A stretch of 64,000 nucleotides of DNA from Sphagnum compactum (GCA_965153455.1 OZ234493.1:35082213-35146212), one strand, 5' to 3'; counted from the stretch's first letter, positions 40,880-64,000 are shown. Translations and numbers: made by a program. The notes: generated from the sequence alone by a model not told the origin.

Positions 40880-42500
40880 TGAGGCCTTGGATGAGGATGT
40901 GTGCCACATATAAGTGTTCCCAAAATTAAGGGATGTTCATATGGCTTTTGGCATCCTCTTAAGGTGTTTTATCCAATTTTATACTCTCATTCCTCATTTT
41001 TAGAGTTTTATAGTTAGACCTTTTTCTTTTTTTGATTTCATCCATGTTTTTGAAAGGCTTTTGAAACTATATTTAAAAAGTGTACAAGAGTTCCTTTAGT
41101 TTGTTGATAAACCATTTTCCCCATTTCTAAAGGGGGTTAGGTTTCATGTTTATCAAGGTCATTGCCTTGATGGCCTGCTTGGGGAGCTTGCAGTTTGTAG
41201 CCCCAACCATTATTTTTATTTTTTTTGTAGAATTGTTAGCCTTTTTTATTAGAGGTTATAAGGGCCAATAGTTTAGGTTCATTTTCATTTTAGGCCCATT
41301 TGAAGTTAACACATGACCTTTTCATTTTAGTAATGCATGTTTGCATCCCTCCTTTTGAATGATTTTCAAAAAAAGGAGTTGATTTGCAAAACTACATTTT
41401 AAAAAGTTTGCATGAGCCTTTTTTCTTCAATGTCATCTCTAACTTGTCTTTTGATCCTTGTTGCACTCACTTAAATTTGCACAAGCTTAGGTTTGGATGC
41501 TTGGATTACTATTTGCCCAATTATTCGATCATTTCATATGGTTTCAATTTTTTTTTTTTTAACACTACTCACCAAGTTGGACCTCCCCCATCCAATAGTT
41601 AACAGTTTGGTTTAATGCATTTGTGACAAGCCTATATACTTCATGAGGGTACATACACTTAATGTGATGTTCTTATGGGGAATGCATTGCTATTCAAATG
41701 ATGTTGGAGATACTTTTGTTTCCATTGCTAGAAATGTTGAGTTTCATGTTGCATGTGAACAAACGTATGATGTTGTCTCATTGCACTCCTTTTAGTTTTT
41801 GCATCGATAATTAATATTATATTCATTTTAGATGGGGCCTACACTCTAGTTAATGTTGTCATTGTTGATTCCACTCAAATAAATTTAATTGTACAAGTTG
41901 TCATTTCTCAAGAAATGATTGCAACCCAGGCAAAAAAACGAGCTATACCACGATGGGCACACCGTAGATGTGTTTCTTCCTCTTGCCATAGAAATATTTG
42001 AGTGTTGACACCAACATGCATACAAACCAATTTCCTTCATCGATTTTCTAACATCGAAAACCATCATCACTTGCATACAAACCAATTTCCTTCATCGATT
42101 TTCTAACATCGAAAACCATCATCACTTGCATACAAACCAATTTGCTTCATCAATTTTCTAACATCGAAAACCATCATCACTTGCAAACAAACCAATTTGC
42201 TTCATCAATTTTCTAACATCGAAAACCATCATCACTTGCATACAAACCAATTTGCTTCATCAATTTTCTAACATCGAAAACCATCATCACTTGCATACAA
42301 ACCAATTTGCTTCATCAATTTTCTAACATCGAAAACCATCATCACTTGCATACAATTCTCTTCTTCATGCAACCATTGAGGGTTGGTTTTAGATCCTATG
42401 TTGCTACTTTAACCTCTTTTGATGGGTTCTTGTTGAACTCTCTTGCAACTCCGATTAATGCAATTACACTTTTGGGTGCTATCAATTGGTAGGATGTTGG
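40880..42500 (+). mobile_element. Decayed non-LTR retrotransposon, RLE (restriction-like endonuclease, CRE-like) 3' portion
   Basis: Broken frames give, in the expected order, FPISKGG-LG (post-RT motif), CICDKPIYFMRVH (zinc knuckle), DGAYTLVNVVIVDSTQ and VFLPLAIEIFEC*HQHA (RLE core). Confidence 0.6.
42017..42355. repeat. Six near-identical 55-bp tandem repeats
   Basis: Unit GCATACAAACCAATTT(C/G)CTTCATC(G/A)ATTTTCTAACATCGAAAACCATCATCACTT starts at 42018, 42073, 42128, 42183, 42238 and 42293, plus 8 bp at 42348. Confidence 0.97.
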
Positions 42501-51288: not shown

Positions 51289-52507
51289 AACGTTGGTTAT
51301 CGCACTAGCAGCAAGCAGCCCACAAAACACAAAACAGCCTAGGTTCATGGAAGATGATTATGATCAGCTTCCATCTGATCAGCAAAACACGAATCCCATA
51401 AACCTCACAATCATTTAAGAGATCTGCAAGCTTCACTTCACCCATGAACTCCTCACCATTTCTATCAAACTTGCAGATATAGAAAATCTGCAAAACTCTC
51501 TTTCTGCAAACCTTTCTACAAAACTTAATCTGAAACCCAAGTAGTCTATCTACATAATGGTAGATTCAAGCCCTCTCTCTTCCTTCAAGATGAAAAGGAA
51601 GGTGGCATTTAACCTAGGACAATGATGAAGCTGCCCAAGCTTTCATGAGATGGGTTTGGTGGCTTCTTCTTCCTTTGTTTTTTTAGTTTTATAGGGACAT
51701 GGATGAACCCCGTGCCTAATGCACAGGTGTGTATGTGTCAGCAGCAATTCAAGCTTGCTCTTCTTCTGCTTCCACCAGTTATATAACATTTTCCGGTAGT
51801 TGAAGCTAGTGGGAACAGAAATACTACTCATTAGGCTCATCGACGATATCTTTCCTTCAGACCCATATCTCCTGCTGATCAAGCCGCTACACCTGCTCCT
51901 CGTGTTTGCCCTCGCTTCGCCTCGGAAGCTGACCATATGCATCAAGAAGCTTTAAAGCTTTAAAGGTTCGACAACCTTAAAAACCTCAAACAACAGTTTG
52001 TTGCCTGCCCTCTTTCTCTCTCTCTAATTTATCGGTTTCCCATTACCCAACAATCCAAAGTCCTGCAGGGTAACAACAACAATCAAGCTACAGCTTCCTG
52101 CGATATGTGCAAAAGAAATGTTGCAACAAAGGATGATGATCACGTCTACACAACTCCACGAAGAAAAAAACAAATTGTTTCTTCTTCTAACAACAGAACC
52201 CAATGAGGAGAAATCAAAGTGTGTGTAGTAGAAGCTTGCGTCTTCGTCTTGAACTTCTTTTGCTGGTTGTCGCTTAAGAAGTAGACTCCTTAAATAGGGA
52301 CATGGATGGAGGGCCATTCCTGGTTTATTTCCTTCCCATTTTTGGTGGGCAGAAAGCTACAGTGTTAGACTCAGTAGAGGGATGGTGTGCAGCCGGCAAC
52401 CTCGAAGCTTCCAGGGTGTCGATTCGCATGGACGACCAGACAGATGGAGAGAGGGACGACGGGACGGATTTAGGGGAAGCTTCATTTAACATCCCGACGT
52501 CCTTTAC

Positions 52508-52936
52508 CAGGAAATTGACGACGACGCAGAACAAATGGCCAATTAGTCCCGGAGGGGGACATGATGATGCGGGGTATGAACACACGTTTGCTGACATTGT
52601 TCCCTGTGATGATCTCCGCTTCAATGACATGTTGACCCAATCTCTTGACAATCAACCTTGTACCATTGCACAATCCTATTGATTGATTGAGATTGCGCAA
52701 CAAAAGGATTGGCACGCCCACTTTGAGTTCCAGCTTATGATTTGCAATATCGCTGAATTGCAAAGTGTTTAGAAATTCCATCGGATACAATGAATCCATT
52801 GAAACTCCTGCAGCAGCACTTGCACCTTCTTCTGTTGGAGTCAAAGAATTTACGCTCAGGTACGTGTGCAATTTTTCAAATAGCGATTCTAGAATTGCAT
52901 TGTTGACTTCATTGATGTCAGTATTTTTGGTGGGCA
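52508..52936 (-). pseudogene. Helitron RepHel PIF1-family helicase fragment
   Basis: Reads KNTDINEVNNAIL...TYLS...LYPMEFLNTL...HKLELKVGVPILLLRNLNQSIGLCNGTRLIV...RVFIPRI...WPFVLRRRQFP. Truncated right after QFP. Confidence 0.92.
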
Positions 52937-53154
52937 GAAAGCTGCAGTGGGGATGGTGTGCAGCAGGTAACCTCGGAGCTTCCAGGGTGTCGATTCGCTA
53001 GTCTGAACCCCGTGCCTAATGCATAGGTGTGTGTGCATTTGACAGTACATATTACAAAATTGCAATCTCAGTAGAGGGATGGTGTGCAGCAGGCAACCTC
53101 AGAGCTTCCAGGGTGTCGATTCGCTAATATACCCCATGCCTAATGCACAGGTGT

Positions 53155-53750
53155 GTGTGCATTTGACAGTACATATTACAAAATTATAATTACAAACTAT
53201 ATTTCCAAAACCTCTTTATATACGACATTTCGCATGAATCTATGGAAACCCTGGCCGCTGAAAATCTTGATGTTTGCACTACTTGTGACGGGTGAACCGG
53301 CACCCACACTAGTAAAAACCCTGAAATTTTTTAGGATGCTTCTAACCCTGGTAAATATGGTATCCTTAATACTAAATAAGTACCCCAAGTTTATATGGTG
53401 ACAAACAGTTTTGGAAATAGAATTTTCATGCAGCCAACAGGAAGGCTCAGCGTGCATTTGACAGTACATGGTACAAAATTACAATTACAAACTACATTTC
53501 CAAAACCTCTTTATATAGGACATTCTGCATGTACGTATCAAGACCTTGGCCGTTGAAAATCTTGATGTTTGCACTACTTGTGAAGGGTGAACTGGCACCG
53601 ACACTGGTAAAAACCCTAAAAAATTTTAGGATGTTTCTAACCCTGGTAAATATGGCATCCTTAATACTAAATAAGTACCCCCAGTTTATATGGTGACGAA
53701 CAGTTTTGGAAATAGAAAATTTCATGCAGCCAATGGGAAGGCTCAGCATG
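53155..53750 (-). repeat. ~295-bp tandem duplication containing the extreme C-terminus of Helitron RepHel
   Basis: Both copies encode (V/F)TSSANIKIF.GQG...M.NV(V/L)YKEVLE(I/M)* (ORFs ending at 53197 and 53492), matching the SRVTS...NVVYKEVL end of Helitron helicases. Confidence 0.85.
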
Positions 53751-55039
53751 CACTCAAAAGGCCCAATTTTTTTAAGTTTTGGGTTGGGGGGGAAGGATTT
53801 TGTTTTTCATTTTTCCTTTGTTCCCAACATGTTCCTTTCAAGTTCCCAATGGGTTCCCTAAGGGTGTTCCCAATAGCACCTCCCTTTAATTCCATAGCAT
53901 GGACTGGGGAGGGCACAACATTTTTATTCCAGGTTGAAGGAGGGGTTTTTTGCTCAGGAGGTGGTGCTCTTCTGTCTAGGCAGGTTTGCATGAGCCCTAG
54001 TTGGCCTGCTAAGAAAATACCTTTTAAAATGGGAGGTAACTTATATTTGAACACACTGGCCCTTCTCTTTTGGTGGTTTTCTTTTCTAATTGTCACATAT
54101 ATAAGCTAAAATGATGTGTCACGTGGAAGCCCTTATGCTTCTATTTTAAATAGTGGGGATGACATAGCTGCATCCGTCCAAATGGATGACGGGACAGACG
54201 AATTCAGGGGAAGCTTCACGACATCCTTTACTATATATAATCCCTCTTGGGATATTTGCCAATGATGCAAAATCGAAAAAATTATTAAAAAATCAATGGT
54301 TTGTATACATAAAGACAAGGGTTATAATTATAATCTAAAAATATACACAAACATAAAGGTATGTGGAATAGGCTTGTTATGCCTATAAGTGCAAAGAAAA
54401 TGTATATGTTAGATGTATATGTCCAATGAGATTGTTAGAATGGGAGCTTGAAATGAATTTGAAGAGTTAATTTCAACAAACTAACATTTAAATTTTGGAA
54501 TAACCTCATAGGGTTGTTGTGTTTAAAAGCAATGAAAAATCTATGGCCAATGAGATTGTTCAAATCAATGTGGCTTGATTTATTTTTCAAAATTCCCATG
54601 GTGAACTAATACTTACATGTTGTATGTGACGTGTGAATAGCAAAAACTTTTTACAAGCACTTGGGGATTTTAACACATCATTCTCATTTGAACTCTATGG
54701 GCAAACCGTTAACAATTTTTTGCATAATTTCAACTGTGTGACTTGTTCCTTGTATTGATAAATGAAGTTATGGCACAACTTTTTGCGCTTTTTGTTTGAT
54801 CAAAATTAAGAGGGAATCATCCATTTGGGGATGCAGAAAACATGGCAATCATCCCTATCAAAATATAACAAATATAATTATAGACGAAATATGACATACA
54901 AATCTTTAGTGCCTTTTATACCTACAGCTACATGTTGACAACTAAGTATATGAATCATACAACTTTTTATCTCATTTTTTACAATTGGTACCTTCCAAAA
55001 TCACTTCATAATTTTTATTTGTTAATAGAAAAATGATGG

Positions 55040-59827: not shown

Positions 59828-60329
59828 CTAAAATCATCAAAACGGATTAGAATTGAAAAAGTTACAGCCCCCCAAAAGTAAAGGGGACCAAGAACTCAAA
59901 AAAACAAACCACTGAACACTACAAAGCCCATTTTCCATCACCGAAAAAAATTCTTGTATGTTGCTCCCTTGCAATTAGAGTTCAAAGATGATTTGTAAAA
60001 CTGAAGGTGGCGCTCCTATGGCACTTTAAATCATTTAAAATAAACAAGAAATGAAAAAGTTAGAAGGTTTGAAAGTAGGAGGGGTCGAAAAAAAGAAAAG
60101 AGGAAAAAAAAGTGTTTTGTGAGTTGGAAAGCTTACTTTTCTTCTTTCTATTTTTTTCATTACTGGTTTTCATTTGCGCTTCAAAGATGATTTCTATAGC
60201 TTCAGGTGGGGCTCTTGTAACATTTTAAATCACTCAAAATGAAGCATAGATTATGAAGATCTAAAGAAGTGATCAGTGATAGGGCAGGGATCGGTGATGG
60301 GCAGTTCTACCCTAATATCTTCTTATAGA
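59828..60329 (-). mobile_element. Possible small non-autonomous Helitron
   Basis: The minus strand begins A|TCTATAAGAAGATATTAGGG at 60329 (Helitron-like 5' TC after A). The other end shows only TTAG|T at 59828-59831 and no clear hairpin. Confidence 0.35.
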
Positions 60330-61017
60330 TGATCACCACTTTGGTTACAGCACAAGATTGGAAGTAAAACAGTGCTCCTCTTGTCCTCTGCATAACATCA
60401 TTGCATACAAGTAATAATACAAACATTATAATATCAAGTGTCAGGTCCAACTATTGCCAACAATTATCATAATATTTAGAGTTTCTGTAGAGTGGGAATG
60501 ACTGAAAAATGTTCAACTGGCCAATGTTTTTACTACCAGCTGTAAAAACTGTGTTGTAAAAAATGTACCCTCACAATGTTTTTAAACTTGTCTGCACTTT
60601 GAGTGTCTAAAAATTTCTCAGAAAATTTAATGAGATACAAGAAGGATGGCCGGACACCTTTGGTATCCATAACATGCCTTTGGTATACATAGTATGCTAT
60701 ATACACATTAAGGTCTGGGGTCACAGATTATGTCATTTTCTTGATCACGTTATATGACAGAATCTTCCCATGACAATCATACACTCATAATAGTTCCCAA
60801 TTTCTCTGTTGAATTTCTTTAAGAATTGTTGAAACTGCCACCTCAGACCTGAATGTCATGGAATCTTCTCACCCCTTGCCCATTATGTTGGGTGTGTCAC
60901 CAAGGTCACCTTAACACACTCACCTGGCACATTACACAACATAATGGGCAGGAACTTGATTGTCCCATACTCATGGCCAATGTTTTTTTTTAAAAAATTC
61001 TACCGTTGTGTGGTTGG

Positions 61018-63737
61018 TGAGCGTATACCCGGTGCATAATGCACCCGTCGAACTCCCCCCCGCCTGGTCCTTCCCATTGCCCACTCCGGTTCTTTACCCC
61101 GTCGACCCCCCTCGTCCTTCGCATTTTCCACTCCGATTTCTTTAACCCGTTGATCCCCCCCCCGTTCCCCTGTTATATATAATTAACTTCCCGCCCCGTG
61201 CTGGCCCCCCCCCCCCCCGTGTTGCCCCCCCCCCCTTGTGCTGCAAAATCTCTTTGTTCCAGTGACTTTTTTAGTTTGCAATTTTTTGATTTCGCAAATG
61301 TGGCCATTTTTTGCAGGGAAAACTCCTTTCGCACCAGCAAAAACACAAATTTCCCAAGTTTTTCCTTAATTTTTGTACTGCACAAAAACTCACCACTTTG
61401 CTCATATACTTGCTAACATTCACCAAAACTGCACTGGATCTATTCAAAGATCAAATTTTTATACCCTTACCAGGGCAGGTTTAATCCAGGTTGAAGGCTG
61501 AGGATAATGAAATGTTTACTGCAGCTACAAAGGTTGGAGGGAAAGGGCTGAATCCGAGATACTGATGGAGCTTTACCTCAAATTCATCCACCTTAATCCT
61601 CAATTGTTATTTTCTTTTTCTTTTCATCTATTTCATCCTCTTCTCTCCACTCTTCAAACCATCCCCCCCTTCCTGATGTCCAATTAGACATTAACTCTGG
61701 CCTTAGTGACAACATGTGAAGGCAAGAGACTTAATAGTGTACTTCAGACATATTCAAATTAGATCTTCAAGCAGATTCCACAATAGAGATATCTATAAAG
61801 TCACCTTGTCTTCACCCTGTCTTTGGACCTCCTTTCACCCCCTAACCCCTCTTTTAGTGGTATCCGCAAAGTAAGGAAATTTTATAAAATCTCAGTATGA
61901 AATGCTGAAACTCAGTACGAAATGCTCAGTAGCAGCAGTGGAGGCGCTCAAGAAGAAAAGAAAGACAGGGTGTGGTTGCTCTTCTTCTTCTTCTTCTACA
62001 TTAACACTCAAGGGGGGGGGGGGGTGACCAAGCCCTGTCACCCGCTGCTTCACCGGCCTCTCCCTCCCCCACCCCCCAAAACCTCCGTCACAGACAAACT
62101 TACTGAATTAATATATATGACTAGTGTGAACCCGGTGCATAATGCACCCGTCGAGCTCCCCCCCCGCCCGGTCCTTCCCATTGCCCACTCCGGTTCTTTA
62201 CCCCGTCAACCCCCCCCGTCCTTCGCATTTTCCACTTCGATTATTTAACCCGTTGATCCCCCCCCCCCCCCCCGTTCCCCTGTTATATATAATTAACTTC
62301 CCGCCCCGTGTTGGCCCCCCACCTGTAAAAAAACTTATAGGTGGATAGTTATTGAGTCAGGTATTAGGTTGGGTATCTGAAAACTAACTCTTACGCATGA
62401 AAGGGTGGGTATTAGAGATATCCACAAATTCACCATCTTTGGGCCCCCTTTCGCCCCCTAACCCCTCTTTTAGTGGTATCCGTAAAGTAAGGAAATTTTA
62501 TTAAATCTCAATATGGAATGCTGAAACTCAGTACGAAATGCTGAATCTCAGCATTTAATGCACAAGGTTCGAAAGGTTTATAGCAGCTGGACAGGTAGGA
62601 GCAGTGAAAATATATATAGTAGCAGTGGAGCGGCTCAGGAAAAAAGAAAGACAGGGTGAAACTCAGAAAACCATCAAAAATCGCCCATGCTGGCCCCCCC
62701 CCCGCCCCGTTACCAAGCCTTGTCACCCGCTGCTTCACCGGCCTCTCCCTCCCCCACCCCCCAAAACCTCCGTCACAGACAGACTTACTGAATTAATATA
62801 TATGACTAGTGTGAACCCGGTGCATAATGCACCCGTCGAGCTCCCCCCCGCCCGGTCCTTCCCATTGCCCACTCTGGTTCTTTACCCTGTCGACCCCCCC
62901 CCCGTCCTTCGCATTTTCCACTCCGATTCTTTAACCCGTTGATCCCCCCCCCTGTTCCCTTGTTAAATATAATTAACTTCCCGCCCCGTGCTGGCCCCCC
63001 CCGCCCGTGCTAGCCCGGCGAAATTTCATAACTTGTTGAATTTTTTTTCAGGAATGAAACAAACATGAATTTTTTTGGTGATTTAAACATGTTTTCGCCA
63101 TTTTTGAAATAAAACTAATTAATTTAACCAAATCTAGACCCAGGCACATCTTAGGTCGCCACTTGTAGCAGCAATTTTGTAAAAATGCCTAGCAGGACAG
63201 TCCCCATTTAATACTAATTAATGCTTAGGGAACCACTCCAGTGGACCCAGTTGAGGAATTTGAAAAAAACAACCCCGCTTGGTTCTCCCGTTATCTGGCC
63301 CCCCCCCGCCCGTGCTGGCCCCCCCCGCCCTGTCACCTGTCACCCGCTGCTTCACCGACCTCTCCCTCCCCCACCCCCCAAAACCTCCGTCACAGACAGA
63401 CGGACTGTCTGAATTAATATATACTAGTGTGAACCCGGTGCATAATGCACCCGTCGAGCTCCCCCCCGCCCGATCCTTCCCATTGCCCACTCCGGTTCTT
63501 TACCCCGTCGACCCCCCCCCCCCCCCCCGTCCTTCGCATTTTCCACTCCGATTCTTTAACCCGTTGATGCCCCCCCGTTCCCCTGTTATATATAATTAAC
63601 TTCCCGCCCCGTGCTACACCCCCCCCCGGCGTCACCTGTCACACGCTGCTTCACCCGCTGCTTCACTGGCCTCTCCCTCCCCCACCCCCCAAAACCCCCG
63701 TCACAGACAGACGGATTGTCTGAATTAATATATATGA
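61018..63737 (-). mobile_element. Head-to-tail array of four non-autonomous Helitron units with variable interiors
   Basis: The minus-strand 3' end GGGTGCATTATGCACCGGGTTCACACTAG is directly followed by the 5' end TCATATATATTAATTCAG. Junctions at 62120/62121, 62805/62806 and 63423/63424 (TC lost at the last). Units are about 61018-62120, 62121-62805, 62806-63423 and 63424-63737. Confidence 0.85.
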
Positions 63738-64000
63738 CTAGTGGGTACCCGTGACCTTCAGACACTGTGAAGTCCCTTGGTTTCTTTAAACCGAGAAAGA
63801 CACACACAAAGGTGCAAAGCAGCTATTTTTATTTTTATTTTATTTATTTTTTGTGGCGAAAATCCGTTGAAAAGTCCCCCATGAAAACATACATGGTGAA
63901 GCGAGCGTTTTGGAAAATTTCCAAAAAAAAAACTAAATCGCCACATTTACAGGAGGGTGAAAAAAAAGAGTTTTGAAATCGGCACATTTTGAGGAGAAAA
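63738..64000 (-). mobile_element. Probable 3' end of a different Helitron joined to the array, possibly continuing beyond the window
   Basis: CTAG at 63738-63741 abuts the 5' TC of the last unit. The adjacent imperfect hairpin is different (+ strand CCGTGAC-CTTCA-GACACTG). Confidence 0.5.

Follow-up and report, generated by a model that had tools for sequence, protein, structure and literature searches.

Head-to-tail Helitron arrays have been read in two ways, as rolling-circle concatemers and as the outcome of repeated insertions. In maize, a pair in which CTAG is joined to the TC of the next element was interpreted as consecutive insertions, one option being an insertion at the A↓T formed by a host A and the first T of the resident element (arrows mark insertion points or joints; Du et al. 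2008, PMC2267711). Accounts from Fusarium and maize describe Helitrons in or beside the 5' ends of others, composites with several termini and a preference for sites near or inside other Helitrons; they proceed by cases and models, and the parts that treat such insertions give neither a genome-wide count of split 5' ends nor a strand bias (PMC5148889, PMC3288121). Circles with precise junctions are described for Helraiser and in wheat (PMC4778049, PMC5876387, PMC13286980), and tandem arrays have been attributed to rolling-circle copying or to double insertion (PMC12628747, PMC5932611, PMC12001565). In searches of the openly licensed literature we found no report of a count of split Helitron 5' ends.

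The locus analyzed here lies at the 3' side of a 64,000-nt stretch of Sphagnum compactum DNA (the window) and is a stack of five non-autonomous canonical Helitrons from two families, placed end to end. With the maize pair it shares the direct CTAG-TC joint between elements that differ inside; unlike that pair as described, it has five units of 0.3-2.5 kb, two families and no gene fragments in the cargo frames scanned, and a clipped junction together with an upstream residue gives the direction (PMC2267711). As with the self-inserted Helitrons reported from Fusarium and maize, insertion is in or next to another Helitron's 5' end, whereas the Fusarium FoHeli elements are described as non-canonical (PMC5148889, PMC3288121). 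The 5' TC, 3' hairpin-CTAG and A↓T target are those given for Helraiser/Helibat1 and wheat Xuan-Feng, unlike which the present units code for nothing and are known from sequence alone (PMC4778049, PMC5876387, PMC13286980). Helraiser is described without local hopping, whereas here family ends abut family heads (5' ends) beyond the expectation of a simple target model (PMC4778049). The array resembles rolling-circle arrays in its head-to-tail order and CTAG-TC junctions, but those arrays (Xiong et al. 2016; Pritham and Feschotte 2007), as reported, are repeats of a single element that often show numerous 5' ends for a single 3' end, and the units here are members of different subfamilies, every one with a 3' hairpin of its own. 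It is also like the Drosophila transposable element (TE) dimers, which are described as tandems arising from insertion-site preference and not as concatemers; those dimers carry a target-site duplication (TSD) at the junction and Helitrons have none, so split heads serve as the tracer here (McGurk and Barbash 2018, PMC5932611).

The array is real, and on the minus strand its units follow in the order E, D, C, B, A (Table 1). The preliminary description had placed four junctions (63737/8, 63423/4, 62805/6 and 62120/1) and four hairpins, all of which lie where it put them, and it was also right about the shared 5' and 3' blocks, the unit sizes within its limits (D 314, C 618, B 685 and A 1,103 bp) and the approximate cargo sizes. 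Alignments of the blocks common to units A-D are 100-330 bp long and 85-94% identical, with E values from 1e-32 to 1e-125, far beyond chance. Units A, B, D and E begin with TC and unit C is clipped; the loss at 63423/4 had been recognized, the missing letters being three (TCA) rather than two (TC). Units B, C and D close with a 3' hairpin (6-bp stem) and CTAG, and unit E with a CTAG preceded by a weaker predicted stem-loop. The array had been counted as four units, of which all are present, but the CTAG at 63738 belongs to a fifth, E, a second-family Helitron upstream of D that continues past the window end.

Table 1 Units, cargos and neighboring features of the Helitron stack. Positions are those of the window unless stated otherwise.
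Feature	Position	Strand	Description
Unit E, 3' part	63738..64000	-	2,488-bp non-autonomous Helitron, second family; terminus GGGTACCCACTAG at 63738
Unit E, 5' end TCTACTTATATAATATCC	G000:C1:35148437, 2,225 bp outside the window	-	TCATA immediately before
Unit D	63424..63737	-	Minimal family-1 Helitron, 314 bp; TC start and hairpin-CTAG end intact
Unit D 3' hairpin GGGTGCATTATGCACC	63437..63452	-	Same motif at 62819-62834, 62134-62149 and 61031-61046
Unit C	62806..63423	-	618 bp; head clipped at A↓T step, TCA gone; hairpin-CTAG intact
Cargo C	63012..63292	-	~280 bp; part of a dispersed repeat, trimmed at the ends; relatives at 73-81%
Unit B	62121..62805	-	685 bp; TC start and CTAG end both intact
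Cargo B	62325..62684	-	First 282 bp common to a dispersed subfamily; last 78 bp (62325-62402) without a match among listed hits
Unit A	61027..62120	-	~1,094 bp; TC start and hairpin intact; final 9 nt including CTAG lost
Cargo A	61245..62015	-	771 bp; first ~235 bp from the repeat family of cargo B; other ~530 bp in A-type copies only, among scored hits
Block common to cargos A and B	61820..61937 (A), 62436-62553 (B)		118 nt, 91% identical
Repeat Y, downstream	59830..61032	-	CC(G/T)GGT near-match joins unit A; upstream part of Y absent here

In unit A the hairpin is kept, the CTAG is absent, and because the sequence beyond the hairpin passes into another repeat (repeat Y), joined at a 6-nt near-match, the true end of the unit is at ~61027. 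Other copies of repeat Y (L211-L213, 83-98%) carry different sequence on their upstream side and also have the CC(G/T)GGT near-match where the two are joined, a pattern indicative of a deletion at the end of unit A; owing to this deletion the empty site cannot be rebuilt. The best-supported pieces listed for the five-unit stretch were short contigs and Hi-C reads, none of which spanned it or crossed a joint between units, and at this locus the reads of hundreds of paralogous copies pile up.

The units belong to dispersed families. We searched the 382-Mb genome (702 contigs) and scored the best 40 candidates per DNA query, and unit D gave at least 65 matches in the best 40 of 875 candidates. 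The family-1 3' end, as an exact 25-mer, occurs 375 times (reversed control, 0) and the 5' end, as a degenerate 17-mer, 429 times (control, 26); 79 intact family-1 heads lie in the fetched loci. Among the solo family-1 elements with both ends at these loci, 45 of 51 read A↓TC...CTAG↓T, in agreement with the initial assignment of the units to non-autonomous Helitrons with TC and hairpin-CTAG ends. Because these solo copies have TC and CTAG as their exact ends, we rejected the possibility that the junction lies inside a larger element. Direct repeats flanking the 51 solo sites were of the same length as in shuffled pairs, meaning that there is no target-site duplication, and outside junctions the base after the 3' end was T at 89 of 90 family-1 ends and all 23 family-2 ends. 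Unit D is thus a dispersed non-autonomous canonical Helitron with a TC start, a hairpin-CTAG end, A↓T insertion and no TSD. The 5' region of unit E has at least 40 other matches; 29 loci were fetched, most with an identical TCTAC start, and unit E is assigned to a second Helitron family.

The consensus on the 3' side of solo targets has A at +9 in 70% and A at +10 in 63%, a preference common to both families; for Helraiser, the AT preference is described as strongest 3' of the insertion (PMC4778049), and the asymmetry here is the same on the side tested. At several solo insertions (for example L115, L117, L129, L146 and L153) the host target itself looks like the element 5' end, with an AT-rich run followed by AATTC. 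We also observed chimeric elements of ~360-660 bp in which a 5' end of family 1 is combined with a family-2-like 3' end (L136, L143, L159 and L036), and head-to-tail stacks of family 2 with CTAG↓TC junctions (L198-L201 and L204-L207), some of them after helicase-coding sequence.

The cargos of units A, B and C adjoin the element's own 20-bp G-rich repeat. They had been taken to differ in each unit, but cargos A and B overlap in a block that sits within ~230 bp of one repeat family. Cargo A has at least 10 further near-full-length matches (82-93%), most of which adjoin one or both family blocks. The first 282 bp of cargo B is matched over most of its length at 95-99% in 19 of 19 fetched loci, mostly followed by the family 3' block, and cargo C has at least 13 further matches at 87-97%, 12 of them followed by the family 3' end. 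Since most of each cargo occurs elsewhere within the same termini, the units are ready-made subfamilies and not fresh captures, and the distance of the cargos from their nearest copies (2-8%) likewise means that they are not fresh. Capture occurred in the earlier history of the subfamilies, not as sampling at the array locus.

Judged by their sequences, the shared parts of the cargos appear to be pieces of other repeats: the part common to A and B comes from a ~430-bp repeat bounded by terminal inverted repeats and corresponds to one of its sides, and the source of cargo C is a ~280-bp repeat. For the ~530 bp of cargo A, which among scored hits was seen in A-type copies only, and for the last 78 bp of cargo B, which had no counterpart among them, these hits contained no donor. 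Pfam returned no hit for seven reading frames from the cargos, and an Rfam scan of 60000-64000 gave no match. We also considered the cargos as later insertions with their own TSDs and rejected this: no intact TSD-bounded element was observed, one side of the inverted-repeat element is what cargos A and B contain, and cargo C is without the ends of its relatives, for which the automatic inverted-repeat search was unreliable.

Very probably, the stack was built by successive separate insertions, each on the same strand at the 5' end of an older copy. Helitrons enter at A↓T steps and leave the target unduplicated, and a resident copy offers such sites both at its own boundary (A↓TC) and among the dozen AT-rich bases with which it starts (TCA↓TATA↓TATTAATT). 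In the proposed mechanism, a copy landing at the boundary would create a perfect CTAG↓TC junction, and one landing a few bases into the head would give CTAG followed by a clipped head, with the clipped letters remaining upstream. At the array locus we infer that unit A is the oldest, that B and then C would each have entered at the A↓TC of its predecessor, that D would have inserted inside the head of C and E subsequently at the TC of D, the newest unit being at the 5' end, and that some of the units did not arrive as a ready-made pair. Each unit would have come with its cargo already inside, as a member of a genome-wide subfamily, the cargos being presumably for the most part pieces of other repeats captured before arrival, and the end of unit A would have been deleted later. 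A RepHel transposase elsewhere in the genome is the putative helper supplying the activity.

Successive insertion predicts mixed units and clipped letters upstream, whereas a concatemer predicts one repeated element and nothing upstream. Searched genome-wide, the junction pattern had 26 hits: by eye, 20 were true end-to-head junctions, and 6 were set aside as host flanks with a mere likeness to a head (L141, L146, L153, L154, L155 and L161). Intact heads not directly after CTAG numbered 70, and a clipped junction lies downstream of 11 of them. The letters that complete the clipped head were found directly upstream in 8 of these 11 arrays versus 3 of 59 controls, counting any of five tested strings (Fisher p 2.5e-6, or 2.8e-5 without the single case requiring a longer head). 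At L136 and L197 there are two residues each, arranged in last-in-first-out order around different inner units. No residue was found in 3 of the 11 arrays (L026, L134 and L152, the last of which may be a mutated intact head), L036 had none by eye, and L035, L192 and L193 were left out of the count as they could not be scored. Insertions in reverse orientation into the internal AT run were also seen (L049/L202 and L195).

At the array locus itself, TCATA directly precedes unit E, and when it is placed before the clipped start of C it restores a head that exceeds the common form by one TA; the residue fits only if C had this longer head. Heads longer by TA exist at L007, L011 and L088, and the same pairing is found at L208. 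A second TCATA further upstream of E is not accounted for by the insertion reading. The L208 locus (G000:C5:18067000-18076000) contains, in addition, nested family-1 units and an inverted duplication, with ends within the internal AT run of the 3' block.

A mixed origin is unlikely but is the strongest of the other explanations: the junctions would have formed by insertion, but part of the stack would have been assembled elsewhere and moved as a composite when internal 3' ends were read through. Published accounts describe both end bypass and composite Helitrons (PMC5148889, PMC3288121), and the interior of unit E holds three 3' ends, mostly damaged, that recur in other copies. Such an origin would also fit the arrays without a residue. 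However, the same unit order was present at no other fetched locus (best 40 candidates per DNA search), and the residue upstream of E favors assembly in place.

The preliminary description offered either a concatemer or a self-targeting stack, of which the stack is the better. For the array to be a rolling-circle concatemer, a CTAG-TC circle would have to be copied several times and inserted as one array whose units diverged later. Precise CTAG-TC junctions are described for Helraiser circles (PMC4778049, PMC5876387), and 3 of the 4 junctions in the array are precise, yet the three intact junctions look alike under insertion and circle joining, and it is because the units are mixed, not from these junctions, that insertion is preferred. 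The array has four unit lengths and two families, and each unit has its own dispersed subfamily. In the shared blocks, units A-D differ at 2-3 of ~80-94 bases on the 5' side and 3-8 of ~170 on the 3' side (~2-5%), and the block copies closest to each unit are mostly elsewhere in the genome, so that the units are no nearer to each other than to outside copies. Moreover, a concatemer leaves no clipped letters upstream, and here 1 of 4 junctions is clipped and TCATA stands before E. We therefore consider a concatemer very improbable, and for the whole array it is largely refuted, given the dispersed subfamilies. The locus L032 (G000:C18:7537804-7539749, minus strand) is a better candidate for tandem amplification than the array in the window: it has six or seven family-1 units of similar length (~300 bp), several of which share one variant head, lacks an upstream residue, and may be a concatemer or a product of unequal crossing over.

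It is barely conceivable that the array is a sampling locus, gaining genomic pieces between its conserved blocks and serving the host, for example as a source of small RNA. TE clusters yield siRNA in plants, the array has a repeat/variable-insert look, and 78 bp of cargo B is without a match among the hits. The units were first thought to have sampled different genomic pieces on site; however, the cargos are multi-copy inside the same termini at unrelated loci, those of A and B overlap, and their 2-8% distance from the nearest copies is not that of fresh captures. The inserts are thus neither unique to the array nor acquired in place; similar arrays exist at 11 other loci, and the array locus is not singled out from several hundred family copies. 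Equally hard to credit is a local misassembly in which repeat copies were falsely joined in tandem, since, even with no listed read or contig across the stretch and a region made up of repeats with long G runs, the units differ in sequence and cargo, all junctions are precise to the base at Helitron ends, and other loci with different units follow the same junction logic.

RepHel sequences are many in this genome (Helitron_like_N matches, 150 scored of 398 candidates). One of them, L242 (G000:C1:12797604-12805532, minus strand), is a decayed helicase-coding element of ~7.9 kb with broken frames, a family-1 5' block and a family-2 3' end, and its 5' end is capped by short family-1-type units; its mixed ends suggest that the two families share machinery and swap ends. 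In another, L244, family-2 3' sequence comes after an open frame of 1,638 aa. We saw no intact helper bearing both ends of family 1 in the few stretches examined (four extra). The window itself contains, at 52485-52997 on the minus strand, part of a Pif1-type helicase frame (Pif1_2B_dom in Pfam, E 3.7e-22) that is probably a decayed Helitron RepHel and that overlaps a 124-bp tandem duplication at 52950-53185. Nearby, at 53157-53752 on the plus strand, are two 295-bp tandem copies, the first with a Helitron-like end, GGGTG...CACCCACACTAG followed by T (~53290-53312), unlike those of families 1 and 2, and a 55-bp unit is repeated 6.2 times with 98% match at 42017-42355.

The 5' end may be a preferred target. 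At least 17 of the 375 exact family-1 3' ends, at 12 loci, abut a family-1 head, a lower bound taken from fetched loci to which the array on C18 contributes 4. At loci outside the junction-pattern fetch, 10 of 91 ends (5 loci) lie at a same-strand head and 1 lies, reversed, in the internal AT run. A position-weight target model built from 107 solo ends and a 150-kb background, which leaves out the 5' flank and dependence between positions, assigns 0.03-0.4% of insertions to heads when 400-1,500 of these are assumed; at 0.4%, the probability of 10 or more among 375 is 4e-6. The end-on-head frequency is thus about ten times or more that of this crude model, and the site TCATATA↓TATTAATT was used repeatedly despite its modest model score. 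With a strict head, 15 same-strand junctions were found by eye and no head-to-head one in a search for two strict heads facing away, two patterns that differ in sensitivity.

The excess of 3' ends at family 5' ends is suggestive of a special target. One tentative and rather doubtful explanation is that the transposases steer insertions to a resident 5' end, on the same strand, by binding it as an origin and then as a target. If so, stacks would grow from one side, newest first, and would be a readable record of the order of subfamily activity. The excess may also come from regional clustering, which is reported for Helitrons (PMC12477314), from a model that is too simple, from junctions copied within composites or through tandem duplication, or from the loss of head-to-head insertions, which would form palindromes.

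The stack is a known kind of pile-up, and the locus itself is ordinary transposon debris. In this genome, split 5' ends tell the concatemer from the insertion reading of head-to-tail arrays and give the order of events. The excess at 5' ends, if upheld by a full genome count, would point to origin-directed targeting by the transposase, and such targeting, if true, would bear on the way in which Helitron clusters, chimeric families and TE-derived tandem arrays start.
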